DNA from: a virus
IMG/VR virus record: IMGVR_UViG_3300045988_131075
Location: 29,671 to 93,670 of that record
Strand: one strand, 5' to 3'
Length of the DNA stretch: 64,000 nt
The position numbers and the translations under genes were made by a program. The notes under the pieces are model-generated. The model searched no databases. It saw only the letters and a list, made by a program, of their open reading frames with translations, and had not been told where the DNA came from. Position 1 is the stretch's first letter; each line of letters starts with the position of its first letter. Positions 1-41,597 of this stretch are shown here, in pieces.

Positions 1-572
1 ATGGAGTAAAGATTCCTAAATCTAGTTTCTTATCTATGGAAAAAGATTTAGAAATTGTTGTAAATCATTTATGTAAAAATGAAAGATTAAAACGTTTATT
101 GTATTATACTACCCCAGATGCTATAGACAAGCCAAATCTGAGTGATGAACAAATGATTTAGTTATTTAAGAAAAATATTAAATTAATTCCTAAATTATAT
201 GTTGATGGTAGTGTTTTAAATTATGTCGTAATTAGTTTTGATAATTTTATTCCTAATGATACAAATCCAGAATTTAGGGATAACATTATTGAATTCGATA
301 TAGTTTGTCATTATGATTAGTGGCATTTAAAAGATTATTAGTTGCGTCCTTATCGCATTGCTGCGGAAATAGATAGTATGATAGATAAAACACATTTAAC
401 AGGTATTGGAAAATTGGAATTTCTTGGTGGTAACCAAATTATTTTAACTGATGAATATGCTGGTTTATGTCTTATGTATACTGCTATTCATGGTGAAGAA
501 GATAAGAAATTTATGCCAAATCCCAATGATGAAGAAAGATTTTTAAAAGACTTTTAGGATAGAACTAAATAA
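1..572 (+). CDS. 3' part of a structural-module protein of unknown function; the gene starts upstream of the window. About 5 in-frame TAG codons; stop is TAA at 570-572.
   Basis: Frame stays open from the window edge. All standard-code interruptions are TAG. The track ORF 342..557 is a fragment of this gene. Confidence 0.5.
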
Positions 573-1297
573 TGGATTTACGTTTAGGCTTAATGTGCGG
601 AATTGATTTACCAATACCAGAACTTTAGGCTACAATTCATTAGCCAAAGATAAAAGAGATTGCTTTTGTCGGTGAAAAAGATTTCTTCCTTGGGGTTCAA
701 TGTCTTTGTATTGATAAAAATATAATAGCCAATTAGGGCGAAAGTCTTTTAGTTAATACGAATAATTTTTAGATATTTATGACAATGATAAAAGAAAAAG
801 AGATGGCTGAAAAAAAAGATTCAGTCATAAATGTTTTTTCTCTTATATTTCCAAAATATAAAACTTTATTTACTCCAAGATCTATCATTTTACAAAGTGA
901 TACTTAGATAATGATTGATGATTCAAATTTTGAAATTCTTTAGGAATATTTAAAGGAAATATTTTGTTTTAAATCTTCTATGTCTCAAGAGCTGGGTTTT
1001 AACCCTGCTAATGGTACTGCTAAAAAAATTGCAGATAAATTAATGAGAGGTAGATAGAGAGTTGCTGAATTAAATGGTTCAGCTAATGTTAGTATATTTA
1101 GTTAGTATCTTTCAATGCTTACTGTAGGTTTAGATTCAATGTCTCTACAGGATTTAATGGATTTAACAATGTTCCAACTTTTTGACCTTGTTGAAAGATA
1201 TTAGCTTTATATTAATTGGGATATTGATATTCGGTCAAGGCTAGCGGGTGGAAAACCTGATGGCAAACCGGAGAACTGGATGAAAAATATCCATTAA
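572..1297 (+). CDS. Hypothetical structural-module protein, about 241 aa, with about 10 in-frame TAG codons.
   Basis: The ATG overlaps the upstream TAA (taATGg). The frame is continuous to TAA at 1295-1297, broken only by TAG. Confidence 0.5.
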
Positions 1298-1321: not shown

Positions 1322-2320
1322 ATGAAATTTGGTGTTCGCGAAATTTGCGATGTCGTTTTAAAGGCTAAGGCAACTCAGAAGGTTGGTAATAAAATCTTTT
1401 ATAGAAATGAGCCAGTTATTTATTTCGACACTTTAAAAACTTCCAGCATGGAAGGCGCTGCTACCACTGTATATGCACAGGGAGGACGCGGTAATGCTCG
1501 TTTAGTAGCCTGGGAAGGTGAGCGTACTGTTACCTTTACAATGGAAGATGCTCTTATTTCTCCAGAAGGTTTCATGATTCTTTCTGGTGCTGGTCTTGTT
1601 GAAGCAAGTGCTACTAGTACTATTAAACAGCACGTTACTGAAACTGTAGATAAATCACAAATTGATAGTACAACTACTGAAGGACAAGTTACTATTCGTG
1701 TTTCTAAAAAGCCCTATCTTCCAACAGACGAACAAGAGAATTTTGCTTATGTTATGTTTGTCAAAGATGGCGAAATTATCACTGAGCCTTTTATTCCTGT
1801 CCATGAGGAGTTAACTGCTAAGAAAGATACTAACGGTAATGAATATTTTGAATTAACTCTTAAAACTCCACATGATGATTATATTGCTGGTACAGGTAAT
1901 TATACTTTTAATGAAAAGAATGGCCTTCCAGCGGCTGCAGCATATGATAGTGCTATTGTTGATTATTATACTGAAAAGGCTAGGGGCGCTCAACAGATTG
2001 AGATTACTGCTGATAAATTCGGTGGTAACTATTATCTTGAAGCCTCTACTTTATTCCGTGATCAAAATGGTGTTGATATGCCTGCTGAATTTATTATTCC
2101 TAACTGCAAGATTCAGTCTAACTTCACTTTCACAATGGCTTCTTCTGGTGATCCTTCTACTTTCACCTTTACTATGGATGCTTTCCCTGATTATACTCGT
2201 TTTGACCACAGTAAGAAAGTTCTTGCCGCAATTCAAATTATTGAGGAAGGCGGAGCTAGTGACCTTCATCGTACTATGACTGCTCACGATGAGGCTCACA
2301 ATGCTTCTTTCACTGACTGA
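1322..2320 (+). CDS. Major structural protein, 332 aa: major tail (tube) protein candidate, with major capsid protein as the alternative. It has no TAG and a higher-GC codon usage, so it is likely highly expressed.
   Basis: RBS AAGGAGG sits 8 nt upstream of the ATG. The ORF is uninterrupted and followed by a strong terminator. It lies upstream of the chaperone-like gene and the tape measure gene. The beta-rich composition and C-terminal Ig-like tail are an impression only. Confidence 0.5.
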   Translation: MKFGVREICDVVLKAKATQKVGNKIFYRNEPVIYFDTLKTSSMEGAATTVYAQGGRGNARLVAWEGERTVTFTMEDALISPEGFMILSGAGLVEASATSTIKQHVTETVDKSQIDSTTTEGQVTIRVSKKPYLPTDEQENFAYVMFVKDGEIITEPFIPVHEELTAKKDTNGNEYFELTLKTPHDDYIAGTGNYTFNEKNGLPAAAAYDSAIVDYYTEKARGAQQIEITADKFGGNYYLEASTLFRDQNGVDMPAEFIIPNCKIQSNFTFTMASSGDPSTFTFTMDAFPDYTRFDHSKKVLAAIQIIEEGGASDLHRTMTAHDEAHNASFTD

Positions 2321-2493: not shown

Positions 2494-2499
2494 TTTTAT

Positions 2500-2534
2500 G
2501 GGAGAGAATAGAAATATTCTCTCCCATTTTTTTT
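2500..2534 (+). terminator. Rho-independent terminator.
   Basis: The gggagagaata / tattctctccc stem is followed by a T9 run. Confidence 0.6.
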
Positions 2535-2558: not shown

Positions 2559-3665
2559 ATGAATTCGTTATAGAGAAGTATTAAGGCCAGTCCAAGAGAA
2601 ATGAATACAGAAGATTTTTTAAAGAAATCTTATGAATTTACAAAAAGAAGTATGAGTTAGAAATTAAGAGCAAGAGATACTTCTGAAAAACAAGCTAAAA
2701 AATTAGAAGAATTCTTTCAAAGTATTCAAAATAGATAGCTTGGAAATCCTATCGAAAATATCCAAATGAGTGAATTATTAGATGCTTTAGAATAGATTAA
2801 TCCTTAGCTCTTTAATTCAATGAAATATTTATTTACTACGCCAGATAACTATGGAGATTCTAATGATGCGCATGGTAAATATTTTGAAGGGGTTATTGCG
2901 GAAGCGGTTGCCACTGCGGAGAATTATTTTGCTGGTAATAAAACTATGACTATAAGTGGAAGTAGTAAAAAGGCTGGAACCGCATCTGTTAACCTTATAG
3001 ATTTAGCAAAGGATTTAGATGAAGATACAAAAAATCTAATGAATGATATTTATTAGAAAACTGCCCAAGAAATGAAAAAAGATAGTGAAGCTGCATCTTC
3101 TACAATAAAAGGAGTTTCTGGCAAAGCGGATATTATAGGAATTTAGTAGAATTATACAATATAGAAAACTAGCCATTTAGAATTAGATGAAGAAATTTAT
3201 GATGCTTTATTAAATGCTACTTTTACTGCGAAAAATTATATGTCTAACACTTAGATTGAATTAGGATCTACTAATCCTTTTCGTGTTTTTATGACTATGA
3301 TTCCTCTTGGAGGAGCTACAAGTAAAATTTAGAGATATTACCGTATGTTGGCTTGTAAATAGAAGCACTTTCCTGATAAGCATCCTGATGCACCAAAGTA
3401 TTTTTATAGATTAAGAGCTATTTATGAATTAACTGGTGGAAAATCTAATTATACTAATACTGTATTAAATAAGCTAATAGGTGGAAATTATACTAAATTT
3501 TTAGTTTTAAATTTATAGGGACATATAAGAGTTATTCCTACTTAGAGTGTCATAAAAGAGCTTATTGACAATATTGATGATGATTAGTTTAATAAAGATA
3601 TAGATTGGCAAAAGGCTTTATATGGACGTATTAGGATTAATCAAAATAAATTTAGTGAAATTTAA
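2559..3665 (+). CDS. Hypothetical tail-module protein, 368 aa, with about 17 in-frame TAG codons.
   Basis: A single frame runs from ATG 2559 to TAA 3663-3665. All internal stops are TAG. Confidence 0.5.
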
Positions 3666-3723: not shown

Positions 3724-4257
3724 ATGGCTAAAATTTCATATACTAAATTAGGAATTGGTAAGGAAGAATTGAATAAAGTTCAGACTGTAGAATATAATGA
3801 TCAAACCATTGAAGTAAAGCAATATCTTCCAGTTGCAGAAAAGAGTGAATTAATTACTCGTGTATTAAATAATTCTGTAGATGAAGATAATGGATATTAT
3901 AATCTTTTAAAGATGGATATGCATCTTGCACTTGAGATTGTTTATGCTTATAGCAATATTAATTTTACAGAAAAGCAAAAAGAGGATTCAGCGAAGCTTT
4001 ATGATATGCTCAATGCTTCAAAGGTGCTTAATCTTATTATTGGTCTTATTCCAGAAGGAGAATTTTATTATTTAAATAAGACTGTCCATGAAATGGCTAA
4101 TAATATTGTGGCTTATCGCAATTCCGCGATGGGAATTATGGAGCGCATTACTACTGATTATAGTAACTTAAATTTTGATGCTAGCACGATTCAAAAAGAA
4201 CTTGCCGATCCTAATAATATGACTTTATTGAAAGATATTCTCACTAAATTGGGCTAA
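3724..4257 (+). CDS. Putative tail assembly chaperone-like protein, 177 aa.
   Basis: RBS AAAGGAGG sits 6 nt upstream of the ATG. It lies immediately upstream of the tape measure gene. The protein is acidic and helical. Confidence 0.3.
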   Translation: MAKISYTKLGIGKEELNKVQTVEYNDQTIEVKQYLPVAEKSELITRVLNNSVDEDNGYYNLLKMDMHLALEIVYAYSNINFTEKQKEDSAKLYDMLNASKVLNLIIGLIPEGEFYYLNKTVHEMANNIVAYRNSAMGIMERITTDYSNLNFDASTIQKELADPNNMTLLKDILTKLG

Positions 4258-4302: not shown

Positions 4303-4345
4303 GGGGATAAGAGTATTTTATTACTCTTATCCCCTTTTTATTTTT
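4303..4345 (+). terminator. Rho-independent terminator.
   Basis: The ggggataagagta / tactcttatcccc stem is followed by a T-run. Confidence 0.55.
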
Positions 4346-4387
4346 ATTTTGCAAAGTAAAAATTAAGAGAGAAAGGAGATTTTTTTG

Positions 4388-7300
4388 ATGGCTAAACAAT
4401 TAAATAGTTATCAAGTTAATTTACAATTTAATGCAAATACTGCATAGGCGAAAACGCAATTGCAAGATTTGCAAACAACTCTTGATGCTATTATAAAAGA
4501 GTCTGTAGCGGGGGTTTCTAAAGGAGACTTTAATTTAACTAAAAGATTAAATGAAGCGCAGATAGCGGCATCAAAACTACAAACCATTTTAGCTCAAACT
4601 ACTAATGTAAAAACGGGAAAAATGGATTTAACAAGATTTTCTCAATCTTTAAAATAGAGTAATTTAGATTTAAAAAAGATATAGAATAGTTTACTTGAAC
4701 TTGGACCTTCTGGGCAAAAAGCTTTTATGTCTTTAGCTCAATCTATTGTTGAAGCTGATGTTCCATTAAAAAGAACAAATTTATTAGTTTCTGAATTATG
4801 GACAACTTTAAAGAATACAGCTCGTTGGTAGATTTCTTCTAGTGCATTGCATGCATTTATGGGTACTATTCAATCTGCTTATGGATATGCCAAAGATTTA
4901 AATGAATCTTTAAATGATATTCGTATTGTTACTGGACACAATATTGAATATATGGATAAATTTGCTGAAAGAGCAAATAAAGCGGCGAAAGCATTAAACG
5001 CTACTACATTAGATTACACTAATGCTTCTTTAATTTACTATCAATAGGGTTTAAGTGATGAAGAAGTAGAAAAAAGAACAGATATTACTGTTAAAATGGC
5101 TAATGTAATTAAACAAAATGCTGATATTGTTTCTGATCAATTGACTGCAATTTGGAATAATTTCTATGATGGCTCCGATTCTCTAGAACATTATGCTGAT
5201 GCGATGGTGCGCTTAGGTGCAGATACCGCATCTAGCTCTGATGAAATTGCTGGCGGTCTTGAAAAATTTGCGGCAGTTGCTAATACAATTGGTTTAAGCT
5301 TTGATAATGCAGCAGCTGCGTTGGCCACTATTACTGCTACGACTCGTCAAAGTGAAGATGTAGTAGGTACTTCTTTAAAGACTATTTTTGCTCGTATTCA
5401 AGGTTTAAAATTAGGTGAAACCTTAGAAGATGGCACTACTTTAAATCAATATTCACAAGCTCTTGCGGCTGTTGGAGTTAATATTAAAGACTCTAATGGA
5501 CAATTAAAAGATATGGATATCATTCTTGATGAATTGGGCCACAAATGGTCAACAATTAGTAAAGACCAATAGGTAGCTTTAGCTCAACAAGTAGCTGGTA
5601 TTCGCCAATATAACCAATTAATTGCTTTAATGGATAATTTTGATTTTTATCAAGAAAATATTCAAAGAGCAAAAGATGCAGATGGTTCTTTACAAGAACA
5701 AGCTGATATTTATGCTGAAAGCTGGGAAGCTGCTCGTGATCGTGTGCGTGCAGCAGCCGAAAGCATTTATGATGATTTGATTAATGATAAATTCTTTATT
5801 AGTTTGTCTGATGCGATAGCAGGAGCTTTAGATGCTATCGATAAATTGATTAGTTCTATAGGAGGTCTTCCGGGAGTAATTGCAGCTCTTGGAATGATAT
5901 TTACTAAAGTGTTTAAAGTTCAAATGGGCGAGGGCGTTAATAATTTAGTTTTTGGCCTTTAGTCTTTAGTTGGACTTACAAAAAAGAGTGCAGTTTCTCT
6001 TAAACAAGAAGCTTATAATCGAGCTTCTAATATGGCTTTTGATACTGGTACTGAAGTTGGAGATAGATAGGGAGAATCATTAAAATAGACTTTAGACTTA
6101 AAGAAAAGAATATATGATATATCTGAAAATATTACAAAAGAGGAAAGACAATAGCTTGAAGGGTTAATTGAAATTAATCGAGCTTATAATGAACAGGCTA
6201 TAAAAGCGGCTCAAAAAAAAGATTAGGCTAGTGAGAATCTTCAAAATACTCGCATGGATCTTAGAGCGCGCATAAGAAGAAATTCTGCCACTGGAAAAGT
6301 AGAGAAAAATTTAAATACTTTTGGAAATGTTCAATAGCAAATGGGTGGAATTATTAAAACTGGTTTGCGAGGAACTAAAGCTTTAGATGGACTTAATAAA
6401 GCATTAAAAGAAGGAAGTCCATTAGGAAAAGCTTTTGAGGGCAGAATAAATACAATTCAGCAGGCTTTAATTAAAGTAGATAGATCTGAAGCAGCTAAAT
6501 CTATTGGAAATTTTGTTGAAGAATTAAAAAACGGAACTATAACAGTAGATTAGTTCTTGAAAAAAGTAAATAATGTTGTCACTAAAGAAAATTTAATGGC
6601 TGATGCTACATCCAAAGCGGCAACTATTCTTGAGGATGACTTTGGCAAAAAAGTTAAAATTAACGGCGAGGAATGTCAAAAGCTTGCTGAAGATATGACT
6701 GAAGTTATTGTAACAACAGATAAATTAAAAACTACTAATAAGCAAGTTGCTGGGTCTTATGAAAAAATAAAAGCTGCAATTGAAAATTATAAAAATGCTA
6801 CTGGAGATTTAGGGTAGAAATTAATTTCTATGGTTAATGGTTTTTCTTCATTGGCTATGGGATTGGCTTCCATTAAGAGTATTTTTGATACTTTATCTGA
6901 TGAAGATATGTCATTCTTTGATAAACTTTTATCAGTTAGTATGTCTTTAGGCATGGGTATTTCTATGACCGTTTCTGGCTTATCTACTATGGCTAAAGCC
7001 TATAAAGAATTGGCAGAAGCTAAAACTTTAGATAATATAAAGACTTCGATTAATACTGCTATTACAGAGATTAATAATCTGGTAAAAGCTTAGGCGGCCG
7101 CCAGAACAGGAACTCAAACAGTAGCTACAGATAGATAGGCATTGGCTGAAAGCAAACTTACAAAAAATATAATATTGTAGAATGCTGCCTATTTAGTCCG
7201 TAATACACAGATGTCTGCAACAGCAGCTTTTGGATTAAGTTTAGCTGGTACTATATTAGCTGTAGTTGCAGCTGCAGCGGCTTTAGTGCTTATATCTAAA

Positions 7301-10300
7301 GCAGTTTATAATTCTATTCATAAAGAAGAAATAGCGGCTGAAGCAGCAGCCAAAGCGGCTTCAGATCTTGGTAATGCTTATGATGAGTGTCGTGAAAAGT
7401 ATCAGCAAATGATTGATGAGTTTAATGAATACAAAGATGCCATAGATGCTTTGGATAATTTAACTAAAGGAACTCAAGAATATCGTGATGCTTTAGACGA
7501 GGCTAATCAAAAGGCTTTAGAATTAATTCAAAATAATCCTGATAAATTTAATAAAGATGATTATTATTGGGATGATAATAAATTAGTTATTAAAGATACA
7601 GCTATGTCTCGTGTAGCTGAAGCTAGTAGACAAGAGACAGCGGATTTATAGGCTGCTTCTGCTATGGCCAATGCCAATAATGCTCAGGCATAGGCAAATT
7701 TGCAGAAAGAAAATCTTACTGATATTGTTAAGAGTTCTTTGCGTAACACAGGTAATGTAAATAAATCTATTGATGCTTATTTAAATAGCGATAGAGTTGC
7801 TGTTGATAAAGAAGACTTAAAAGATATTCTTAATCTTGATAATGGTATAGACGATAAGGCTTTAGTTAATGTCCTTTGGCGCAATATTGATGCTTTAAAT
7901 GAGTTAAGAAATACTATGGATGGGGTTGAAACCTCTTTTGATCTTGCTAGTAAAACCGCAGCAAGAGCGCAATGGTCTGGTTCTGGTAAAGAAAATACTA
8001 AAGCTGGAAAAATGGCGCTTGAAGGTGGCGGAAGATTATATAATAATCTTTATGCTGAGGGAGAAAATACTGTTAAAGGTTATTCATTAGACACTAATTG
8101 GGCTGCCTATGAAAAAATGAATAATTTGAATTCTCTAAAAGGATATAAACGTTCTATTAAAAGCGATAAAGTTGAATACAGTTATTATGATGAGAATGGT
8201 GAAAAGATAACTTAGGAAATCAGTAAAGAAGCTATTCAAATCGCGGCCGCAACCCAATATGCTAATGATAGAATTGGAGAAGCTTTAGATAGCTTATATC
8301 AAAATATTGCTAAAGCTAATAAAGATGGCCTTGATAGTGTAGGGAAATATTTATCAACAGAAAATTTTGATAATATGACAAAAGGCGAGCTTGAACAATT
8401 TTAGGGATTAACTGATGATTAGTTAAAAGAATACGGAATTGATAAACAAGCTATTGAAGAAGCTAAGAAAGTTGTATTTGATGAAATGGATGGTCTTAAT
8501 GAAGCTATGAGCGATTAGATCACTGTTGGAGTGAATAAGACTTTAAAAGAAAATATTTAGAATTTTGGTTCTGAAGGTAAAGATGCCTATATTAGTGCTA
8601 TCAATCAAATTGGTGAATCTATTGATTGGAATGCTTTGTCTCCAGAATCTTAGGCTGAAGCTTGGAATAAAATTTCTAATATTAATTGGTTTGATTTTGA
8701 TGCTCAACGTCAAGCTGAAACTCTAATTAAAGAAATGGGCGGAGATGTTTCTGTTCTTGGAGATAATTGGGATAAAGCTTTTAGCTAGATGCGCAAAGCT
8801 GGAGATGTCGTTCCAGTATTAACTGATATCAAAGAACGCCTTGATAAAATAGATAATATTACTAAAGATATGAAAATCGGTAAGATTTTAGAAAAAGAAG
8901 ATTATGATACTTTAGTAAATTATAATAGTGAATTGGCAAGATATTTTGCTATTTTATCTGATGGGTCTGCTGTTTTTGTAGGTGATCCTCTTGATTTCCA
9001 GTAGATGGTTAAATCCACTAAGTAGGATGAATTAAGTAGAACTATAAATGGATACCAAAATATTATTGATTAGTATTATGCGGGGGCTGAAGAACTTAAA
9101 AAAGCGGGTGGATTAGATTAGATTCGAGAAGTTGGGTCTGAAAATGTTAATAATCAGTTAGCGTTTTTAAAGACTTAGAACTATGATGAAACATAGATTT
9201 CTGATTGGATTGGTAAGCTTGCTAATTCTAGAGGATAGGATATTGACACTTTAAAAGCTATTGCTGAAGCAGTTAATGAAGTTGGTAATTCTTTCTTATC
9301 TAGCAAAGATAGTATAGAACAATATACAGCAAGTAGTCAATAGGCTATGAATGAATTGGCAATGACCGCCGAAACTGCTCAAGAAGCAGAAGAAATGCTT
9401 AAAAATGGTAGTATCAATGAAATAGCTTATAATATAAGTGCTATATAGCGTATGTCTAGTGAAAAATGGGAAAATTTAGATTCATCTGAAGTAAATAAAT
9501 ATGCAGATTCTTTAATGAAGACAGCTAAAAGTTCTAAATTATTAAGTGATGAACTTGTAAATAATAAAGAGGCTGCTGAAGATGTAGCTCTTTACACTAT
9601 GAAAATGAATAATGGTGTAGAGAAATTGAAAAATGGCTTTAGCGGATGGGCTGATGTATTAACGAAATCTGATTCTGCTTCACAAGAATATTATGATGCA
9701 ATGGTTGATATTAAAGATGCCATGTCTGATGTGCTTGGGGTTTCAGAAGAATTTTTAACTGATGAGTTTATTACTAAAAATTTAACTGATATAGGCAAGG
9801 CTGCAGAAGGCGATGCTGATGCTATAGATCGTTTGGCCGCTGCGGCAAGTAAAGATATTCTTTTAAATGTTGATTTTGTTTAGGATAATAAACAATTACA
9901 AGATGTTTTATTATCAATGCATGATAAATTAGCGGCGGAAATTCCAGATATAAAAATTGGTACAACTTTTGAAGGTCAAGATGATTTAGTTAGATAGGCT
10001 CAAAACATTATCGGCACAGCAAAAATGACTGCTGAATAGGCAAATGCTTATTTTAGTGCCATGGGTTTTGAAACTAAATTTAAAGTTGAACCTCAAAAGA
10101 TGGAATAGGAAACCCCGATAGTACGTTCTAGATAGACAATAGTTGGAGCAGGATTTGATGAACACGGAGCTCCCTATTGGGAAACAACAACAGAAACTTG
10201 GAATGATGGATATAGCATTCAAACAGGTTATGTCGATGCTATTGCTATGGCGACCTCTCCTGATGGAACAAAAACTCCGATTATTGAAAGTATGACTAGT

Positions 10301-13300
10301 AAGCCTACTGGAATTATGAATAATAGTTCAAAAGCTAATAGAGGTACTACAAGCTCAAGTAAAGGCGGAGGAGGAAATAAAAATAAACCAACCAAGGGAG
10401 ATTTAACTAAAAAAAGCGATGTTGTTGATCGTTATAAAGAAATTACTGATAGCATCAATGATACCACTCGTGCTTTAGATAAGGCTAATAAATCGGCAGA
10501 TAGACTTTGGGGTAAAGCCCATCTTGATGCGATGGCTAAAAGTAATAAATTAACTTTAAAAGAAATTGATTTATTAAAACAAAAGCAAAAAGAGGCTTAG
10601 GCTTATCTAAAGACAGATAAAGTTACTTTATAGCAAGCTGCGAAAGAAGCTGGAATTACTTTCACATTTGATGAAGATGGTGACATTTCTAATTATACTG
10701 ATTAGATGACTAAACTTTATAATTAGCTCATAGCTGCTTAGAATAAAGCAAATTCTTTTTCTACAAAAGATGCTCAAGACGCTTATAAAGAAGCAACTTT
10801 AGATCCGATTCAAGAGAAAATCAATAAGTTGAAAGATGCTATTAAGCAATATGAAGATACAAGAGATTTAGTCGAAGAATTAACTGATGATATCCAAGAT
10901 AAAATAAACGAATGGCAAGATAAAAATTATCAAATGCTTACTTATGAAGTTGAAATAAAGGTTCAATTAGATGAAAATGATACTAAAAAATTAGAATATT
11001 ATTTTGATAAATTAAGTGATAATATTTATAAAGCCGCTGAAGCTCTTGGATATTTACAAGGCCAATTTGATCCAGTAATTAGTCAATTAGGAACTTACGA
11101 AAATTTCTATGGCCAGTTAAATAATGCTTATTCTAATGGAGAAATCTCTCAAGAAAATTATATTGAAGGCTTACAAGATGTATATGATAATACATTAGAT
11201 AATTTAAATGCTTTGTAGGATTTAGATAAAGAAATGCTTGAATATTATGGTAATACTATAGATTTGGCAAATGATGAATTGTCTAAATATACAGACCATA
11301 TGGAACATTTAACCAATGTATTAGACCATTATCGTTCTATTATTACTTTATTAGGCAAAGATAAAGATTATGATAAAGTTTTATCAGTTTTAAATGGAAC
11401 TGCTTAGACTAAGAAAAATAATTTTGATACTTCTAAGCAATGGTATGAAAGCTTGAAACGTGAACGCGATGCGGCGGCCGCAGCTTTAGCCAGTTCAACT
11501 GATGAGGCTGAACGTGAAGTGCTTCAAAAGAATTATGATGCTATATTAGCCGCATTCGATGAAGCGGAAGAGGATATGCTTTCTAAAGCTGAAGAATATG
11601 GCGAAGCATTAAAAGAAATTCTTACTACAAAGATGGAGCAAGCTGCGGATGAAATGAATAAGCAATTAAGCACTACTAAAGTAAGTATTAATGGTAATAA
11701 CTTTAATATTTCTGGTTGGGATGCTTTAAATGATGCTTTGGATAGAATGTCTTCTTATCAAGATGAATATTTAACAAAAACTAATTAGATTTATGAAATG
11801 AATAAACTACTTAATAATGTTAATTAGGCTATTGATAAGACAAATAATCAAGCAGCTAAAAATAGATACCAGCAATTTACTAAAGAAATTGAGTAGTTAA
11901 GAGATAAAGATAAATTAAGTCAATTAGAATTAGAAATTGCTTAGGCTAAATATAAAGTACTTGAAGCGCAAATTGCGTTAGAAGAAGCTCAAAACGCAAA
12001 GTCTACAGTTAGACTGCAACGTGATAATGAGGGCAATTTTGGTTATGTGTATACCGCAGACCAAGAGAAAGTAAATGATGCGCAATAGGCTTTGGCGGAC
12101 GCGGAAAATGATTTATATAACATTCGCCTTGATGCGACAAATAAATATGGTCAACAAAAACTTCAATATGAGAAAGAGTTGGCTGACAAACTTGCGGAAC
12201 TCGATTAGAAAGCTGCGGAAGATGCCGTTTACCGCGAGACCGCTTATCAGCAAGAACGCGCTTTAGTAATTCAACAATATACTGATTTAATTACTACTGC
12301 TGGAAATCTTTATGCAAAAGCTCAAGAAGAGGATAGTAGAGTTGTTCAAGACGCTTGGGTAAATTCTTTTGATATTATCAAAGATAATAGTAATAGTTGG
12401 AAAGATACTATTACTGAAAACACTAATATTATCAATGATACATTTAAAGAATGGCAAGATAGCATGGATGAAATTAGTAAAATTGTTGGTGATGATTTAA
12501 AAGATACTCAATAGAAAGTTAAAGATGTTACTGATGAAAGTAATAAACTTTATCAAGAAGTATCTAATAGAGTTATTCCTACTCTTGAAAGCGAGTTAAG
12601 TTCTGTCCGTAGCGCTACTGAAGCTTGGGCACAACATCGTCAGCAATTACTTGATACTATTAGAGCTTATGAAGAGCTTTTGAACGCTATTCAAGCGACA
12701 TTGCGCGCTTAGAGTGGATTTGGTAGCGATAGTAGTAATTCTTCAACAAGAGTTGATTGGTCTGAAAAAATGGGTCAAGTTGAATATGGTTCTGATAAAT
12801 ATAATGAATATTATCAAAATCGTGAAGATGTTATTAAAGGAGGATATGACATTAAAACAGCTACAAATGCTCGTGTTAATGCTTTTTATCAAAAAGGATT
12901 GACATTACCAATTACCCGCAATGGAAAAACTTATACTCATTTTACTGATATTCCTGATAGCATTTGGAAACAATTAGTTGGGTTTAGAAGTGGCGGTTAT
13001 ACTGGCACTTGGAATGATGGTGGAAAATTAGCGTTCTTACATTAGAAAGAATTAGTTCTTAATGCTGATGACACGGAAAATATGTTAGCTTCTATCCAAT
13101 TAGTTAGATAGATCGCGAAACAATTAGATTTCAATAGTCAACAAATTTCTACTCTTTCTTCTTCTGGATTTACTGTTAGTTCTCAAGATGGAACATTAGA
13201 ATAGAATGTTAGAATTGAAGCTAATTTCCCGAACGCAACTGATAGATACGAAATTCAAGAAGCATTTAATACATTAGTTAATGTAGCTTCTCAGTATGCC

Positions 13301-13312
13301 AATAGAAAATAA
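4388..13312 (+). CDS. Tape measure protein, about 2974 aa. This is a single ORF once TAG is read as sense, with many tens of in-frame TAG codons.
   Basis: RBS GAAAGGAG precedes the ATG at 4388. All 15 long track ORFs from 4460 to 12770 share one frame, and the gaps between them contain only TAG. The stop is TAA at 13310-13312. The protein is Ala/Gln-rich and helical, with no enzymatic motif recognised. Confidence 0.7.
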
Positions 13313-13317
13313 AATTA

Positions 13318-13355
13318 AGGGTGAAGTCTTATAGGCTTCACCCTTTTTCTTTTTG
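13318..13355 (+). terminator. Rho-independent terminator.
   Basis: The agggtgaag / cttcaccct stem is followed by a T-rich tract. Confidence 0.55.
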
Positions 13356-13427
13356 GGTAATTATATTGAATAAAACTAATTAATTTTTTAGAAAATTATA
13401 GAGTAATGAGTAAAAGGAGGGATTATT

Positions 13428-16400
13428 TTGGCTGATAATGCACTAAATATTCAAGAAAGTTTATGTCAAGCAATGAGTATCATTGCTAATTCGAGTGTTG
13501 ATAAAGTTAAATTTGATAGCACAATTGAATGTACTATTATTGATGCGACTGATAAACTTATTGGTAAGTATAAGGTTAAAAATGAATCTTATGCGGAATT
13601 TTATGCTTATTCCCAAATAACCACTTATAATAAAGGTGATAAAGTGTATGTATAGATTCCAAAAGGAGATTATAATAGCACTAAATTTATTGTCGGTAAA
13701 AAGACAGATAAAAATGAAGATAAACCATATAATTTTGTCAATCCTTTTAATACTTTTATTGATTTAACTGGTAATTTTTTTATTGCCAAAGATAATAATA
13801 AAGAAGTTTGGAGTATCTTAGCTAATGGCAATGAAGAGGAAATTGAAATTACTCCAAATGGCGGAATTACCTTTACTGATGAGCAATAGGGATTTACGCG
13901 GTTGGGGTTGCGTGCCGATTTCCGCGCCTGGCTTGAAATGCTCGGTGTAGTAAGTGGTAATTATGGATTAAAATTAAATATATATGGTATTAAAGATGAT
14001 ACTGCGGACAATATTAAAAAAATAGAAAATAGTATTAAAAATAATGGAGAAATCCCTTTAATTGCATCTATTGATTTAGATACTAATGATATGTATGGCA
14101 ATCCTTATAATTTTGAAGGATATTATTCTCAAGAAATTGTTATTGATACTAGCGCAGTAGCTAAAATATATAATATAAAAATATTTTTATATCAAAAAGG
14201 TAATTTTAAAGATAGTAATAATAATTTAATTAGTTATGCTAATGATTTCAATATGTCAATTCCGCCCAATAATATCTTTGTAAAAGATATATACATGGGG
14301 TTAGGCATTTCCGCAGATGAAATAGAAAATGAATATGTAAGATTATATTCATTAGATGGAAGTACTTATGTAATTGACGATAAAGGTTAGATTGATTCTA
14401 AAACTATTAGATTGAAATGGGTTCATTTTGATGAAGACGGCAATAGAACTCAAATAACCGAACATAAAAAAGATGATACTTTTGAAGTTCATTGGTATAA
14501 ATATGAATTTGGAGCACCGTCCGCGGATGAATATTCTGGTGTCTATTGGACTGCAATTGAAGATAATAAAAATAATTTTTATTATTAGCTAAAACCGCGC
14601 TCTAATAAAAATCAAGAATAGGTTAAAGTAATTATTTTATACAATGGAAAAGTTTATAGAAGTAATATAATTACTTTTAATAATGAAAAACAAGTTCCTA
14701 ATGATGCGACTATTGATAGTTTAAATGCTTTGTCTATTCACTGTGAAGATTAGACTAATGGTAATTATTTAATTTATAATTAGGCTAATTATTTGATGAA
14801 TAGATCAGATGGAAAAATTAGTCGTAAACTAACCTTACATTTTGATTCTAAAACTTATGCTATTAGCAATGGTATAATTGGTAAAAATTAGAATGGAGAA
14901 AGTAAATTAGTTGAAGCTTAGAGAGTAATTTGGCAGATTCCTATTAAGAATACTATGCTTAATTTTGGTATTAAAGATGATGGAACTGATGCTACTTACA
15001 AAGAAATCATTATTGATTTAACTAATGAAAACGTCAGTGTTTCTCCTGGAGAATTTTTTTTAAACTACACCATTAATACTTTTTATAGTAGCAATAAATC
15101 TAACAATACTGTAATTGCTAAAATAGAAAAGGATGGTATCGTTTATACTGCTATTAAAGATTTCACTTTTGGATAGGCAGGAACTAATGGTACTGATTGT
15201 ACTTTGGTAATTGATATGATAGCTCACGAGAATTTAAATAATAAAGTATTTACTGCTATAAGAAGTAGTGGTGACGTAAGAGATAATTATATTTTTAGAG
15301 CTTAGTTATATGATAATGAAGGTAAGGAAATTACTGATTTTAAAAATTGTAATTGGACTTGGAGTTTTATGCCTGGGTCAATTGTTGATAATATTGATTT
15401 ATAGAATACTAATAATTAGAATTGTGTGTTAAGAGTTAATATCACAAATTCTATAATGAATAATTTAATTATTTTATAGGTAAAATTATCTGGTTGGGGA
15501 GACTATGATTTAACTGCTTATTATCCAGTTCCTATTACGACTTTAGATAATGCTTATATAAATGGTCCAACAGAGGTAATTTATTTAAGTAATGGTGAAC
15601 CTACATTTTCTAAAGAACCTTATAAATTATTTATAGACGGAAAAATAGATGAAACTGTGACTTGGAGCATTTATTCTAGCAATTCTGATGATGCTTTTAT
15701 TGGTAAAGTTAATTATAATAAGGATAAAAAAGAATATAGATTAAGTCCTATGAGTTTTTACGTTGATGGTGTAAGCGTTTATGGAGTCCAAGGAAAATAG
15801 AGAAATAAGATAGTTTGGACGTAGCCTATTTTAGTATTATAGAATAAATATCCATCTGCTATGGTAAATAAATGGGATGGAAAATTTTATACTGATGTAG
15901 AAAATAATTTTTTAGGTGTAGCTTAGATCGCTGCAGGTAAAAAAGATAAAAATGCTAATACTTTTACCGGAGTATTAATTGGTGATTTTGGAACAAAACA
16001 AAATGCAGATTCAAGTATTTCTTATAATACTGGTGTTTATGGATATAATAATGGGTATCAAGTTTATGCTTTAAAAGATGACGGAACTGCTACTTTTGGT
16101 AAATCTAGCACAGGATAGATTATAATTAATGGAACTTCAAGTATTATAGAATCTAAAGATTTTGAATATACTTATAATGAGTCTGGAGCTAGTGTAATAA
16201 CAGGGTTAAGTTTAGATTTATTAAATGGTAAAATTTATGCTTAGTCTGGTACTTTTAGTGATAATATTAAAATTAATTATAATGGTTCTACGGGATAGCC
16301 TTGGTATATTTAGTATGGAGCGGGAGAAAAATCATTAAGTGATATATTAAATGCAATTGGTAGCGCTGCTGCTGAAGCTAAAAGTGCCGCTAGTGCGGCG

Positions 16401-16751
16401 GGGGCTGCTGCTACTAAAGCTCAATAGGCAGCAGATGCAGCCGCGGATGTAGCGGAAACAGCTGCTTCAATTTCTATAGTAGCTAACAATGCTGCGTCTA
16501 ATGCATAGAGTGCGGTAGATGATTTAAGTTATTTATCAAAAATTTTGAATTATAAAAATAGTAGTAATATTTATTTAGGTCCTTCTGTTGAATATTCTTC
16601 TACTCCCAATTTAACTATTTTTAATGGCACAATTGGCTTAATGGGAGGAACTGGTAATTATCTTAATGTGACTGATAGGTCTATCTATTTACAAGGTCCC
16701 GTTGTAATAAATGGTTCATTGACTCTCAATGGAAAAGAAATAACAGGTTAA
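13428..16751 (+). CDS. Tail or baseplate structural protein, about 1107 aa, with about 28 TAG codons.
   Basis: TTG start after RBS AAAGGAGGG. The frame is continuous through all track fragments (13428, 13902, 14955, 16545) and ends at TAA. Confidence 0.5.
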
Positions 16752-27213: not shown

Positions 27214-30200
27214 ATGTCTAAGATACGTTTTCGTCCTGTATAGGGTCCAGAAGAAAAGATAAAAGCATATCCACAAACTGATGGATATTTTTATGTGGCA
27301 ACAGATACCGGACGAGTTTATTTAGATACAGCGACTGAGAATAAAATACCAATAGGTTCAAGTGGCGTTTAGGTAATTTATGGAACTGAAAAAGACGTCG
27401 GAATTGATTATGATGCGGATGAAAACCCAATCGGATATTCAATTCGTTTATCTAATTTATCAAGTTCTAATCCTCATGTAAATGATTTAATTTTAAATAG
27501 CGATGGAGCATTTTATCGTATTAAAGAATTTAAATTAAATGATGATAAAGAAGAAGTCGCAAGTTGTGAAAAATTATTGGCAGGCAGTGGAAGTCAAGAC
27601 CAAGAAGTCAAAGTAAATGGTACTGTTTCTTTAACTTTAGATGGACCTACTGATGTGCTTAATGGTGAATCAGTAAGCGTGACCGCGCTTGTAAAATGTA
27701 GAACAATAAACGGAGAACCAGTTCTTGATTCTGTTGAAGGTACTTTAACTATTAGATAGAAAAAGAGTGATGGTTCTTGGGAAGATATTTATAGTGAAGC
27801 AAAAACTTATTAGCATAATAAACCAATTACTACTGATATTTCTGCTTATTTAAGAAATTCTTCTACACATGAAATTGAGTTTATCGTTAGTAAAAATAGT
27901 GATCCTACTAATAACCATTTTTCTACTACTAAAAAGACTCAATTTGTAACAACTCATGAATTAACTCTTCAATGGCAAGAAAGTAAATTTAATAATGATT
28001 TACCTTTTGATAATGGTCAAATTAATGTTACTTGGTTAATGTCCGATAAAGTAAATAGTGCTATTGAAGTTTATTTTGATAATTATTTAGTTTTAGATAA
28101 AGAATATAGCAGTACTAATACTAGAAATGAAGATAGTATTACTATAACAAAAAATACTGTTATTTTAAATAATAATAATGATTCTACAATGACTTTAACA
28201 AATTATTTCCTTCACGGAGAACATACTATTAAGGCTAAACTTTATTTAGTTAATAGTGGTGAAAAAGGAAATGGTACTGATTTTATTGAGAAAGAAATTG
28301 TTGTTTTAGATAGAAGCAGTAAGACTCCTTTAATTTGGACAGGTGACTTTAAAACAGAATATTATATTTATGAAACTATTAGAATTCCTTTTAGGGTATA
28401 TGATCCTAATGTAACGATCGCGAAAGTTAGTTTATATAAAAATGGTGTTTTATTAAGTACTCGTGAAGTTACTAACTAGAATGAATGGCAATATTGGGAA
28501 ATTACTAATCTTTCTGTTAATGACAGCTCTTATTATACAATTAAAGTAGGAACTGAGCCATATGATTATTCTCGTAATTTTACTTTTATAATTAAAATAG
28601 ACCCATTAAGGAATATGGAATTAGCTAGAAGTAATGATTTAAAAGTTAATTTCGTTGCTACTGGACGTTCTAATTCTGAGAGTAAATTAAGTCGTGAAAC
28701 ATTAGAAATTAATGGTAAATATGCAGAATTTAAAAACTTTAACTGGTATAATAATGGTTGGGTTTTTGATGATAACAATACTACTTGTTTAAGAGTTAGT
28801 AATGGTGCTGAAGTTTCTATTCCTATTGGACAATTGTCTTTTGATAATAGTTCTTCTACTCCTACACATAGTATTGAGATTCAATTTAAAATTAGAAATC
28901 CACAAAATTATTCTAAAGTAATTACCAAATATACTCGTTATAAAGCAAGCGATGAATCTGGAAAGTCTTGGACTGATAGAGATGCTTGGGATGCATTTAA
29001 AGATTAGACTATCTATGTTAATTATGATGAATTTTTAACAAAGAAATATTTACCAGAGCATCCAGAAGCTCCAAGTTATGATGAATTAACCTATAATGGT
29101 TTAGATCAAGATTTTAATTTAAATAATCTTGTTTGCGCTTATGGGTCTTTAAAAAATCCTTTAGGTATCTATTTTAGTCCTCAAGATGCTGTATTTACAG
29201 CTAATGGTGATGAAGAGACTGTTTCGGTTGATTTTGTAGAAGATGAAATGTTATATTTAACATTTGTTTACACAAGTTCTAAACCTAGTCATACTGGCGG
29301 AGATTCTAAATTATTAGAAATTTTCTTAAATGGTGTTTTAACTAGTGTAGCTCGTCGTTCTGATAAATCTAGTAATTCTGCTTGGACAATTGATTCTGAT
29401 GTTATTAAATTTATGTCTAATACTTGTGATATTGATATTTATAGTATTAGAGTTTATGATACTAGTTTAACTATTCCTGATGTGGTTTAGAACTATGCCT
29501 TTGATAAAAAAGATATTAATCAATGGGATTAGAAAGATCTATATGATTATAATACTATTTTAAATGATTATGTATTTTCTTACCGTAAAATGCTTGACTA
29601 TAATACTGAACACACTGATAAACCATTGATGCCTTATATTATTTTAAAAACTACTAAAAATAATAGTGAAAGTACTGATAATAGACTTCCCTACTCCAAG
29701 GACAATGGCGCTCAAAAAGGAACTATGGAATTTGTAAATGTTCCATTAGATACTGCTTATGCTAAGGGCGAACTTGATAAAATAGTTGAAAAAGAAGGTT
29801 GGAAACCTGTAATAGATGATAAAACTAATGAAGTAAAATATACTGCGGTATAGAATTATTATTTACATCATTGCCCTAGTTTTATAACTCTTTTTGATAA
29901 AGCGACATTTTAGGTTTAGGGAACTTCTTCGCGTAATTATCCAAGACGTAATTATAAAGCTAAATGTAAAGAAACGATGTTTATGAATAGAGGACCTTTT
30001 GAATCTATTTATAAAGAAGAAGAGGTTAATAATAACTTAAATACGAAAAGTAAGAGTTATCTTGAATTTTTCTATATGGATAATAATACTGTTGGTACTA
30101 CTAAATTTACTTTAAAGATTGATTTTATGGAATCTTCTGGAGATTATAATAGAGGATTTGCTAATTTAGTTAATGAGACTTATTCTAAACATCCAGTAGA

Positions 30201-33200
30201 AGATTACCAAGACTCTTTTGATAAATATGATTTATATGGAGATATTGATGATTATAGGACTTCTATAAAAGGATATCCCGTTCTAGCATTCCATTGGCCT
30301 TCAACTAACGATAATGAATATAGTGAAAATGATATTATTTATATTGGAAAATATAATATGTTATTAGATAAAGGCTCTGATGAATGTTTTGGATTTAAAC
30401 CCAATAAAAAAGTTTTATAGAATCAAATTGAAGGAACTCCAAGAGTAAGGGATGTTGCTGAATGCTGGGAATTTTAGAATAACTCAAGAACATACTGCTC
30501 TTTCCGTGATCCTTGGAATAGATATAAATTATCTTTTAGACCTCCATTAATGGATGATAATAACTCAGCAGGTTATTTAACTTCTGGCGGAGCTCCAATG
30601 GTTGCTGATTCTTTTGAAGTTAGATATAATTCTAATGATGATTTAATCGGCGATGTGTTGTTTAAATGTACTTCTGCTGAAGCTACTGATGCTGATAAAA
30701 TAATTGAATATGCTGATGGTATAAATAATACCGTTCCTAATAGATTAAAATCAGAAATAATCGTTGATGGAACTACAGGGACTAAACATAAGCAATGGAC
30801 TATTACTAATCCAGGACAAGATCCTGTCATATTTGACATGAAAAATAGAAATACTTCTCGTGAATTACTTCTTGCATTAATGTCAAATTGGGAAGATGCC
30901 GTAAGTTGGGTTTGGAGTACTTGCTTAGATTGTAGTATTGATTTTGATGGAATTTTATATGAAATTCCTTCAATGGGTAAATATGAAAAAATAGATTTGG
31001 CAGAAGCTAAATATGAACCAAATAAATATTACTTATTTGATAAAGTTGATGAAAGTGGTAGTGAAACTTATAAAATTGCTACGAAAGAATTTGATTCAGA
31101 AGAAAAATATTATATCTATAATAAAGATACCAAAATTTATAGTATAATTAAATTAACTGATGATGATAGTAAAGTTTATTAGATAAATAAATATTATATT
31201 TTATAGGATTAGGATAATAAAATTTATATTCTAGATTCTGAAAAATATAATCCTTATACTACTTATTATTCTTTTATTGAAGATGAAAGTCAAATTGATG
31301 ATAGATGGATATTACCTAAACCAGTAACTTATAACTCAGTTACTTATACAAAAGATAGTAAGGAATATCGTCAAGCTAAATTTAAAAATGAGTTAAGCAA
31401 TTATTTTAATATTGAATATTTAGCTACTTATTTTTTAATGACTGAGATTTTTGAATGTTATGACTCTCGTGGTAAAAATGCAATGTTTGCTTCTTGGGGT
31501 CCTCAAAAAGGAAATATTGAAAAAACCACTGGAATTCAACACTATATTTGGTATCCTATTTTTTATGATATTGATACACAATTGGGTATTAATAATACTG
31601 GTATTCCATCATTTGAGTATTATGTTGATGCGACTGAAGATGGTAGTTATTCTACTAATGATAGCGTATTATGGAATAATTTCTATACTTTTTTCAAGAG
31701 TAAAATTGTTGATAAATATAAACAATTAATGGGTAAGCCAAATGGTTCTTATGATTAGAGCCAAGTAAAACAAATTTTCAAAAAAGAATCTGGAACTTCC
31801 TCTAAAAAGAGTGATGTTGTTGACAAATGGTATAAAACAGATCCTTCTTTATTCCCAGGTAGCTATGCTGTATAGGGAGAACGTCCTATTATTGCTTTAA
31901 ATTTAGATGAAGAATATAAATATATTATTCCAACTAATTCTGCGGCTAAAGATACTATTTTTGGTCGTATTACTAATGGCGGCCAATATGAGATAGAAAG
32001 TGACCAATATTTCTATGCTTTATAGGGCGACCGCAATCTCTATCGTTCACAATTTTTAACTAATCGTCTTAATTATATTGACTCTTGGTTGACAGTTGAT
32101 GAATATTCTGGAGATAGTGGTAGTAATAATATTATAAGTCGTATTTCTGCTAATAATCCAAATACTACTTCTGATGAATGGATTGAAGGAACTAATAATC
32201 AAGGCTTAACTAATTTAATAACTAATTCTCAATATTGGAAAAATGGTACTGAATTTGGTACTAAAAATCATATGTTTGATGGTGAGTATTGGATTAAGAT
32301 GGAACCCGCGCGTCGTTCTTATGTTACTGTTGGAACTGATGGAGCAAACTTCCCATCTTAGAAATATGATGGTTTAACTCCTGTTAGATTTACCGCCCCA
32401 GATCTAAAGAAAGGTATTATGTCAAGTGGTAATTATCGTGAACAATTATATTATATTTATGGCTTAGAATAGATGAAATCTCTTGGAGATTTAAGTAAAT
32501 TATATTTCCAAGAATTATTTATTAGAGGTAAGGCTAATAAATTAGTAGATTTGTTATTAGGATATGATGGTCTTTCTGAAGAAGGAAAAAAATATAAAAA
32601 TAATGACGTAAATAATTGGAGTTATCCTAGTGAGGGTATGCCTTTATTGAAAGAAATGAATCTTTGTAATATTAGATTTTTAAATCCAGTAGCTTTAGAT
32701 TTAACTAAAAGCGAAAAATTAGAAAACTTTAGAAATACTGGTTCTAATGTTACTAAAGTGTAGTTTGCAGAAGGTGTCGCGTTAAATACTTTGTATTTAA
32801 CTGATTATACAAATTATTTAAGTTTAATAGAAGCAAATCTTTTAACTAAGTTAGTTACTAAATATGTATATCCTACAGTTAATCCTATCACTAATCGTCT
32901 TGAAGTCGCAGAAGAAAATAAAGGATTGTATATTAAGAATTTAACTGATGCTGAAGATAATGCAATTACAACAAGTATAAAAACTTTTGATATCCGTGGT
33001 GGTAATCTAGATTATTATTCTTACGAATTATTAAGACGTTATTATCTTGGGTGTGAAAAGAGTAATTTAATTGGATGCGAAGTTAATTTAACTAATGTTC
33101 AATGGAGTCCTTATAGATTATTAAATGATGATAAAACAAAGTTAGATAGTGTTAATATTGAATATTATAAAGATAATGGACATTTCCAATTAGAAAAAAT

Positions 33201-40533: not shown

Positions 40534-40580
40534 ATAAGGGAATGAAACTATTTTTGTTTCATTCCCTTATTTTTTTTATT
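40534..40580. terminator. Bidirectional intrinsic terminator.
   Basis: The aataagggaatgaaac / gtttcattcccttatt stem is flanked by A7 and T8 runs. Confidence 0.55.
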
Positions 40581-41007
40581 AGTCTTTAAGCGGTAATTTT
40601 AAAGTCCTTTCATAGTACTCTTTAGCCTATCCATTTCCACCTAAACCTGCATACACTTTAAAGAATTCGACTAACTATTCATATTGTACTGAAGTCATAT
40701 ATCCTTGTTTTAAGAAACTTTGACATAACTGAATTAATCTAAATCTATAAGAAGCAAGAATTATTTCAATATATCTTTCACTAACTTTCTTTTCTTCCAA
40801 TACAAAAGATCTTAAATTATTTAGATCTTCTTTGATTGGAGCTATATGCTCTTCAATTAATTCTTCTAATTGTTCATCTTTCTTTTCTTCTGCCAATTTT
40901 TGATACATTTTCATTTGAGTATAAATATATCTACAAAAGGCTAAGAGGCCAGCAGAAATAAGACCAAAAAATATTTCTATAAAATGCTAGGCAATAAAAG
41001 TAGACAT
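40579..41007 (-). CDS. Small membrane protein, about 142 aa, with 3 TAG codons.
   Basis: RBS GGAAGGAGG precedes the ATG. It has a hydrophobic N-terminus. Track ORF 40675..40914 is an internal fragment. Confidence 0.45.
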
Positions 41008-41084: not shown

Positions 41085-41597
41085 TTATTCCCAATTAAAA
41101 TCATTATTGGAACTTTCTTTCGTGAAATACGCGGTATATAAACATATGGCATCGCATACATCATCATTGGCTTTTATATTATATTTTTGCTATACAAAAT
41201 CAATATCGGCTTGTTTAAGAGTTTCACGTTTAATACTGCGTCCGGTTTTAATTCCAAGTTTTTTTCGCCATTCACTGGCCTACATCAGCTCTAATGTTTT
41301 GGAAGTAAATGAAGAATTAACTCCATGTGCGCCTAACATTACTGCGCCTTGAAGCCACATTAATAAACGTGAAGTATCAGAATATCCATAAGTTTCAGGA
41401 TGAACATCTTCTGCTACTATCTTCTCTATATTATATTTTTTTACTAATTCAATAATCTAATCTTGTATTTTTTGTATTCTATCTAAATTATTAGAGGAAA
41501 TCGCGGTTAGCAGTCCATAATCTAACATTTCTCCCTAATTATTAGATACACAATAACCAGTAGATTTAGTAGATAAATCTAAAAAGAGGATATTCAA
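41085..41597 (-). CDS. ruvC: RuvC-like Holliday junction resolvase, about 170 aa, with 4 TAG codons.
   Basis: TTG start after AAGGAGG. It carries the LDLSTKSTGY and DDVCDAI motifs. The standard-code track missed it. Confidence 0.55.

Follow-up and report, generated by a model that had tools for sequence, protein, structure and literature searches.

A single gene at positions 4388-13312 on the + strand of a 64,000-nucleotide stretch of viral DNA (IMG/VR record IMGVR_UViG_3300045988_131075, positions 29,671 to 93,670; the whole stretch is referred to as the window) very probably encodes one tail tape measure protein (TMP) of 2974 residues. The gene would belong to a large siphovirus with a structural module of the SPbeta type, in which TAG stands for glutamine (Gln) as in genetic code 15.

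The open reading frame and its product

An earlier reading of this DNA, made without database searches (the sequence-only reading), had proposed a single open reading frame (ORF) with TAG as a sense codon, and the frame count bore this out. Frame 1 of 4388-13312 consists of 2975 codons, 58 of which are TAG and none TGA, and the one TAA is the last codon, giving a product of 2974 residues. The other five frames contain 131-448 TAA and TGA codons each, which excludes a chance origin of the frame in DNA of 30% GC. The stop-to-stop frame begins at 4385, one codon 5′ of the ATG at 4388. TAG codons are scattered along the entire gene, with a longest TAG-free run of 175 codons, and the standard code would thus split it into 59 pieces. 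The gene had also been called the most amber-dense of the window; this holds for the count (the 41 tabulated ORFs contain 215 in-frame TAGs, of which this gene has 58, the highest number of all) and fails for the density, which at 1.95 per 100 aa is about the seventh highest, six ORFs being denser (Table 1).

Profile searches, including the Pfam run that had been proposed, supported the identification as a tape measure. The N-terminal part of the protein matches TIGR01760 (tape_meas_TP901) with 98.6 bits against a cut-off of 28.8 in the NCBIfam scan, and PF10145 (PhageMin_Tail) with 94.1 bits against a cut-off of 33.2 (E=1.4e-26) in the Pfam scan. The top PHROGs, 4211 and 34405, are both annotated as "tail length tape measure protein", and their profiles are 2625-2675 positions long. 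On these matches the product is assigned to the TP901 family of tail tape measure proteins. No lysozyme, transglycosylase or peptidase family was found in the whole protein (Pfam and NCBIfam, E<=0.01), and matches beyond the TMP core were sub-threshold noise, in agreement with the earlier statement that no lysozyme or peptidase domain is embedded. A first guess, that DNA of 30% GC with recoded TAG would come from a crAss-like phage and the "TMP" be a virion RNA polymerase or cargo protein, was rejected on account of the TMP core domain and the SPbeta-type synteny of the tube gene.

The meaning of TAG and its decoding

The gene map of the window was drawn with TAA and TGA taken as the only stops, and is compact, consisting of a + strand block with the large structural genes (36-39079) and a - strand block (39123-63907). 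The structural block contains 186 in-frame TAG codons (1.48 per 100 aa), against 29 (0.41 per 100 aa) in the - strand block. The use of TAG as a sense codon therefore reaches across the whole structural block, beyond the TMP gene.

In a codon-by-codon alignment of the TMP gene with five alleles of 91-98% identity (L003, L004, L006, L010 and L011), 47 TAG columns are kept in all six sequences and 23 columns vary. The alternates at the variable columns are CAG (11), CAA (8) and other codons that are singly scattered, so that CAG and CAA make up 19 of the 31 alternative-codon observations. As CAA is two substitutions away from TAG, the swaps between TAG, CAA and CAG are best described as drift within a family of synonymous codons. 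Alignment to six homologues that use the standard code gave the same picture, with TAG sites facing Gln in 22.9% of cases, true CAA and CAG sites facing Gln in 23.4%, and a background Gln frequency of 6.7%. By these alignments TAG is assigned to glutamine here (genetic code 15).

What runs against this assignment is the lack of a decoder in the sequence scanned. ARAGORN found no tRNA in the 64-kb window, which covers about a third of the ~190 kb genome, in 17 related tail-module loci, or in 12 loci that extend up to ~11 kb past the 3′ end of the window. With no suppressor tRNA recovered from which anticodon and tRNA identity could be read, TAG might instead be decoded as some different amino acid (Tyr, Trp, Lys, Glu and pyrrolysine are examples). 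Such a decoding is very improbable in view of the dominance of CAG and CAA among the alternates: of the other codons one step away from TAG, TAT was observed once, and AAG, GAG, TGG, TCG and TTG were never observed. Nor would another residue be expected at sites that align to Gln at the rate of genuine Gln codons. Suppressor tRNAs are, moreover, documented in the related phage phAss-1, whose tRNA-Sup-CTA genes are assigned to Gln (PMC10607447), whereas none was found in the part of the window lineage that was scanned. In the window phage, TAG would presumably be decoded by a suppressor tRNA(CUA)-Gln that the phage itself encodes and expresses at an earlier stage of infection, as known from other phages with code 15, and such an early decoder would fit the bias of TAG towards the + strand block.

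The sequence-only reading had further held that translation of the gene depends on efficient suppression, and the arithmetic agrees. With 58 TAG codons, the computed yield of full-length protein is 56% at 99% read-through (0.99^58) and 5% at 95% read-through (0.95^58), so that nearly complete decoding of TAG is required. Recoding has been proposed to delay the expression of late genes (bioRxiv 10.1101/2021.08.26.457843), and the need of the TMP gene for a near-complete code switch agrees with that idea.

Relatives and the continuity of the protein

Nine close relatives of the window phage were found in IMG/VR, on contigs of 68-196 kb. The closest relatives include the 181 kb contig IMGVR_UViG_3300045988_119030, with a TMP of 98% identity, contigs of 190-197 kb from the same IMG dataset, and CAMELE010000001.1. 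In five of the nine, the TMP is 2968-2974 aa long and 91-98% identical over its full length, the L003 allele being the 98% one. The other four have TMPs of 2737-2752 aa, in which the centre (aa ~1053-1704 of the window protein) is swapped for a shorter, diverged segment. A tenth close relative, L023, comes from a metagenome-assembled genome (MAG) bin and has a TMP of 2740 aa, with 95% identity in the C-terminal stretch of 934 aa. Among these relatives (L003-L011 and L023), the first 1050 and the last 1270 residues are common to both length classes. The two classes represent natural variation in the length of the ruler.

More distant relatives show that the frame corresponds to one protein. The standard-code relatives L012-L015, L017 and L026-L028 have uninterrupted TMP ORFs of ~2840-3700 codons, all free of TAG, and those that were aligned (L012, L013, L015 and L017) are colinear with the window TMP, which establishes that the whole 4388-13312 frame is one protein, as had been claimed. 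The opposite view, that TAG acts as a stop here and the region comprises a series of short ORFs or a degenerate pseudogene, has on its side the GenBank annotation of the homologous region of phAss-1, which consists of 17 "hypothetical proteins", and the fact that standard-code gene callers break up the region in the same way. It is barely conceivable, given that 58 TAGs lie in one frame of 8.9 kb free of internal TAA and TGA, where the other frames are riddled with them, and that TAG positions are kept in six alleles or exchanged for Gln codons. The unbroken, colinear homologues and the extension of the pattern over the whole structural block are equally hard to reconcile with it.

Two homologues are broken. 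Among 26 full-length family homologues (L001-L015, L017 and L019-L028), 24 are continuous. L002 is a TAG-recoded relative on a contig of 102 kb; its TMP gene changes frame in a run of nine A residues (~7329-7337), exactly at the Gly/Ser/Lys linker, after which the new frame is homologous to the window TMP even before the start that was called. This change is likely a homopolymer error or slippage. L001 is a standard-code relative of 134 kb and 35% GC (ENA ERZ28658842, XIAO16-1 scaffold_16), whose TMP frame of 3236 codons is interrupted only at codon 1652, by a TAG (14954-14956). All 13 other genes of its 25 kb locus end in TAA, no other in-frame TAG is present, and the exact N-terminal TMP product of 1651 aa is recorded on three contigs. 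The TAG sits in a variable stretch that could not be aligned, so that no residue can be deduced for it; it could reflect incipient recoding, programmed read-through or a nonsense allele, and is the most interesting loose end outside the window. The break points of L001 and L002 differ, and there is thus no sign of a conserved two-gene design.

The L001 codon also enters a broader proposal, in which the amber load of the TMP gene is a designed gate on tail assembly instead of neutral codon drift, and the TAG of L001 is perhaps the first step of a code change. This proposal is doubtful. It starts from the observation that the gene for the ruler and initiator, with its 58 TAGs, lies between two strong terminator-like hairpins, and that neither the gene for the abundant tube protein nor the small gene before the TMP has any TAG. 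Tails would then start only once the code switch is essentially complete, and truncated products, lacking the C-terminal anchor, would be unable to seed aberrant tails.

In the tail-module loci of L012-L017, none of 31 ORFs of at least 150 aa ends in TAG (all end in TAA or TGA). The part of the clade without recoding may already avoid ending its genes in TAG, a suggestion that refers to few ORFs in AT-rich DNA. The MAG bins that contain L023-L028 are labelled Mollicutes, Tenericutes, Bacilli, Gastranaerophilaceae and Bacteroidales, and these host labels are mutually inconsistent; L023, a contig of 164 kb binned as "uncultured Mollicutes", probably represents the genome of the phage.

Domains, predicted structure and the working length of the ruler

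As is established for TMPs in general, the tail tube would enclose a few copies of the largely helical chain, with the conserved C-terminal module anchored in the initiator complex of the tail tip. Tube subunits would polymerise around the TMP until its N-terminal end is reached, so that the length of the chain would set the length of the tail, and the hydrophobic segments may help to form a channel through the host envelope at ejection. The segments, the core domain and the conserved C-terminal elements are listed in Table 1. Self-BLAST revealed no internal repeats in the TMP.

Structural models were built for two parts of the protein with AlphaFold2 (AF2). The C-terminal model (aa 2283-2974, 692 residues) was built on the database protein P0121, which is 100% identical over the BLAST alignment and is not an exact copy. 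It consists nearly entirely of long helices, with a low-confidence mean predicted local distance difference test score (pLDDT) of 58, and the invariant motif TVRLQRD-EGNFGYVYTAD forms a small hairpin in it. The second model covers a TAG-free segment of the window protein (aa 1917-2070), and shows an ill-defined strand-rich stretch, a disordered Gly/Ser/Lys linker and a confident helix from aa ~2009, with a pLDDT of ~58 overall. A search of the PDB with the N-terminal family profile returned mainly generic coiled coils, besides a solved structure named "tail tape measure protein gp18".

Several observations stand against the reading as one full-length tape measure, or limit it. The models, with their pLDDT of 58, are of too low confidence to support the view that all of the chain is ruler. 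Neither the strand-rich island (aa ~1895-1975) nor the last ~190 aa are predicted to be helical, and sequence and profile searches with the whole protein and with the C-terminal profile found no sequence relative in the PDB. The breaks of L001 and L002 belong here as well, as does a report that the TMP of Bacillus phage Tsamsa appears in virions as two bands, of 280 and 100 kDa (PMC3903500). Processing, or a product made in two parts, is therefore conceivable for the window protein.

These points lend themselves to a reading in which the chain is one and the working ruler is shorter, because the protein is cleaved, is made of two parts that meet near the linker (aa ~1976-2006), or is in part ejected cargo; on this reading the tail would fall clearly short of 420 nm. 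The position of the L002 break exactly at the linker, that of the L001 break ~400 residues earlier, and the non-helical island just before the linker suit such an arrangement, and a precedent for added cargo is found in Thermus phage P23-45, whose long TMP carries a fused enzyme (PMC10770324). A shorter ruler is nonetheless improbable. The great majority of the family homologues are continuous, the two breaks lie at different places and would be independent lesions or errors, one of them in a homopolymer, and no enzymatic domain was detected in the window TMP. The measured tails of Tsamsa and of Lactococcus phage 949, furthermore, fit the full length of their TMPs at 0.14-0.15 nm per residue. 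The preferred reading remains that of one full-length ruler.

Length of the protein and the predicted tail

The sequence-only reading had described the protein as exceptionally long and the inferred tail as among the longest, a judgement that did not survive comparison with homologues. The C-terminal 692 residues were searched against 1.84 billion representative proteins, which yielded 2693 matches, 887 of them at E<=1e-30. A length set was drawn from the best 150 of the 2693, and comprised 132 full-length proteins with a C-terminal match and a mutual identity of no more than 50%. In this set the median TMP length is 2956 aa (interquartile range 2772-3087, maximum 3506), and 59 of the 132 proteins are at least 2974 aa long. 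The TMPs of the relatives retrieved range from 2737 to 3700 aa, and those of the phAss-1 group from 3149 to 3209 aa. The comparison across relatives, which had itself been proposed, thus put the 2974 aa of the window protein at about the family median, a length that is ordinary for its family. The longest TMP known, that of P23-45, has 5002 aa and goes with a tail of ~800 nm (PMC10770324), and the 2974 aa of the window protein come nowhere near it. Both the TMP length and the recoding of TAG are normal for a large known group, the long-tailed phages of low-GC bacteria.

Two homologues with measured tails served for calibration. Tsamsa has a tail of 440 nm and a TMP of 3123 aa (PMC3903500), and Lactococcus phage 949 has a tail of 500 nm and a TMP of 3276 aa, which correspond to 0.141 and 0.153 nm per residue. 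Applied to 2974 residues, these values predict a tail of ~420-455 nm for the window phage, in line with the ~0.4 micrometres of the earlier reading. The prediction is concrete and testable, and the relatives with TMPs of 2737-2752 aa would be expected to have tails ~30-35 nm shorter.

Comparison with known phages

The closest described parallel is the phAss-1 group (proposed genus Phassvirus; "Caudoviricetes code 15 clade" at NCBI), which comprises siphovirus-type genomes from the human gut. As in the window, TAG is read as Gln in the structural genes and the TMP is a single giant ORF, homologous to the window TMP over most of its length; phAss-1, BK046881_ctckW2 and BK025033_ct6IQ4 have TMPs of 3149, 3150 and 3209 aa (PMC10607447). 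The combination of a giant TMP with TAG recoding is therefore already published. The phAss-1 gene consists of 3150 codons from the first ATG, 110 of them in-frame TAG, about twice the TAG density of the window gene. The two differ in TMP sequence, at 23-27% identity, and in genome, the phAss-1 group having ~136 kb (133-138 kb) and ~38% GC, whereas the window relatives lie on contigs of ~160-197 kb with 30% GC. A megablast search with the TMP gene found no match among GenBank phages. Judged by sequence, the window phage falls outside the proposed genus Phassvirus, as a related but distinct lineage.

In the GenBank record of phAss-1 (OQ749652; L020), the TMP gene (4677-14129) is split into 17 short coding sequences (CDSs), each a "hypothetical protein" and some on the wrong strand, unlike the paper on this phage, which gives the TMP as a single ORF (PMC10607447). 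Standard-code pipelines shatter the TMP gene of the window in the same manner, and the use of code 15 recovers the complete tail module.

The best matches among cultured phages are the TMPs of Enterococcus phages VRE9_1-4, EF1/EF5 and H1 (PHROG 34405), which are colinear with the window TMP from the N to the C terminus, with identities of 22-39%. These phages have genomes of ~138-142 kb, a TMP of 2673 aa (VRE9_3), and the same upstream order of PHROGs as the window (6123, 4051, 2729 and 30570). They differ in using the standard code, and VRE9_3 has TAG as the stop of 4 of its 10 long ORFs.

Lactococcus phage 949 (ORF130) and phage phiL47, which has a tail of 480 nm, share with the window a giant TMP with a homologous core of the TP901 type. 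Phage 949 is a siphovirus too, and differs from the window phage as a cultured dairy phage with a genome of 115 kb and the standard code; detectable similarity is confined to the core (~28% identity). The homologous core is also present in gp226 of Bacillus phage vB_BanS-Tsamsa, a giant siphovirus of 169 kb, which differs from the window phage in its standard code and as a temperate phage of Bacillus anthracis.

The SPbeta prophage of Bacillus subtilis has the same tail-module order, from YomW, YomV and the YomU tube to the TMP, which is YomI (CwlP). By tblastn, yomI of the SPbeta group was matched in two pieces within aa 135-2910 at ~28-29% identity; the TMP core alone matched YomI at E=2e-17, and the C-terminal motif is homologous as well. 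YomI is ~2285 aa long and also has an M23 peptidase domain. It is annotated in GenBank as a putative or lytic transglycosylase, and domains of this type (SLT and M23) were not detectable in the window TMP with Pfam and NCBIfam over the whole protein. The TMPs of Thermus phages P23-45 and P74-26 are giant rulers like that of the window and set an extreme tail length; no homology to the window TMP was detected, and an RNA polymerase is fused at their N terminus (PMC10770324).

The window adds a lineage of ~190 kb and 30% GC to the very long-tailed siphoviruses of the SPbeta/949/Tsamsa type, beside the phAss-1 group. It does not change what is known of tape measures or of stop-codon recoding.

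Gene neighbourhood and tail module

Gene order around the TMP gene points to a tail module of the SPbeta type, consisting of the YomW-like, YomV-like and YomU tube-like genes, the phrog_30570 gene, the TMP gene and a tail gene for 1107 aa (Table 1). The YomW, YomV and YomU assignments were transferred by BLAST to L001, which has precomputed Pfam matches, among them PF27256 and PF27211 in the YomW and YomV genes; a Pfam scan that lacked the PF27xxx SPbeta families matched none of eight neighbouring proteins. Upstream of its TMP gene, L001 has matches to YonD_N, YonB, YomW, YomV_2nd and YomU_Tube, which are SPbeta structural families, and no sheath gene within 10 kb. On this gene content, the window is assigned an SPbeta-type module of a non-contractile tail.

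The position of the small phrog_30570 gene suggests that its product is a tail assembly chaperone. A gene at the same position in L002 has a weak match to YomO. The tube gene and the phrog_30570 gene contain Gln codons and no TAG, and their neighbours have 2-4 TAG per 100 aa. The hairpins on either side of the TMP gene and after the tube gene suggest graded transcription of the tail genes.

Table 1. Positions of the features discussed in the text (window coordinates; aa, residues of the TMP).
Feature	Position	Strand	Remarks
YomW-like tail/neck protein	36-572	+	56-59% identity range (with YomV-like gene) to L001 genes; PF27256; denser in TAG than TMP gene (2.25 per 100 aa)
YomV-like tail/neck protein	572-1297	+	56-59% identity range (with YomW-like gene) to L001 genes; PF27211; denser in TAG than TMP gene (3.73 per 100 aa)
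Tail tube protein, SPbeta YomU type	1322-2320	+	66% identical to L001 PF27173 YomU_Tube gene; phrog_2729; no TAG
Terminator-like hairpin	2498-2527	+	13 bp stem and T run; after tube gene
ORF denser in TAG than TMP gene	2559-3665		4.08 per 100 aa
Small conserved gene	3724-4257	+	directly upstream of TMP gene; phrog_30570; no TAG
Terminator-like hairpin	4303-4334	+	13 bp stem and T run; just upstream of TMP gene
Shine-Dalgarno-like AAAGGAGA	4372-4379	+	8 nt upstream of ATG 4388; direct sequence reading
TMP CDS	4388-13312	+	2974 aa; 58 in-frame TAG as Gln; TAA stop
TP901-type tape measure core domain	4856-5890	+	TIGR01760 aa 157-501; PF10145 aa 197-404
Hydrophobic segment 1	5834-5920	+	aa 483-511; Kyte-Doolittle scan
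Hydrophobic segment 2	6926-6982	+	aa 847-865; Kyte-Doolittle scan
Hydrophobic segment 3	7211-7318	+	aa 942-977; Ala/Gly/Leu-rich, strongest of the three; Kyte-Doolittle scan
Variable ruler centre	7544-9499	+	aa ~1053-1704; shorter diverged segment in relatives with 2737-2752 aa
Strand-rich island, then Gly/Ser/Lys-rich linker	10070-10405	+	aa ~1895-1975, then aa 1976-2006; L002 frame change at equivalent place
Conserved motif AKSTVRLQRDNEGNFGYVYTAD	11993-12055	+	residues invariant family-wide; modelled hairpin within long helices
Conserved C-terminal module	12953-13309	+	aa 2856-2974 (GGYTG...LHxKELVLN...ASQYANRK); 47-54% identity even with distant relatives
Terminator-like hairpin	13317-13345	+	13 bp stem and T run; 5 nt past TMP stop
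Next tail gene	13428-16751	+	1107 aa, 24 TAG; directly 3′ of TMP gene in relatives too; denser in TAG than TMP gene (2.17 per 100 aa)
Second giant ORF	27214-34917	+	2567 aa, 32 in-frame TAG
ORF denser in TAG than TMP gene	40579-41007		2.11 per 100 aa
ORF denser in TAG than TMP gene	41085-41597		2.35 per 100 aa

The sole family matches of the second giant ORF are PHROGs 14959 and 24896, both of unknown function, and a role as tail fibre or in host recognition is probable for its product.

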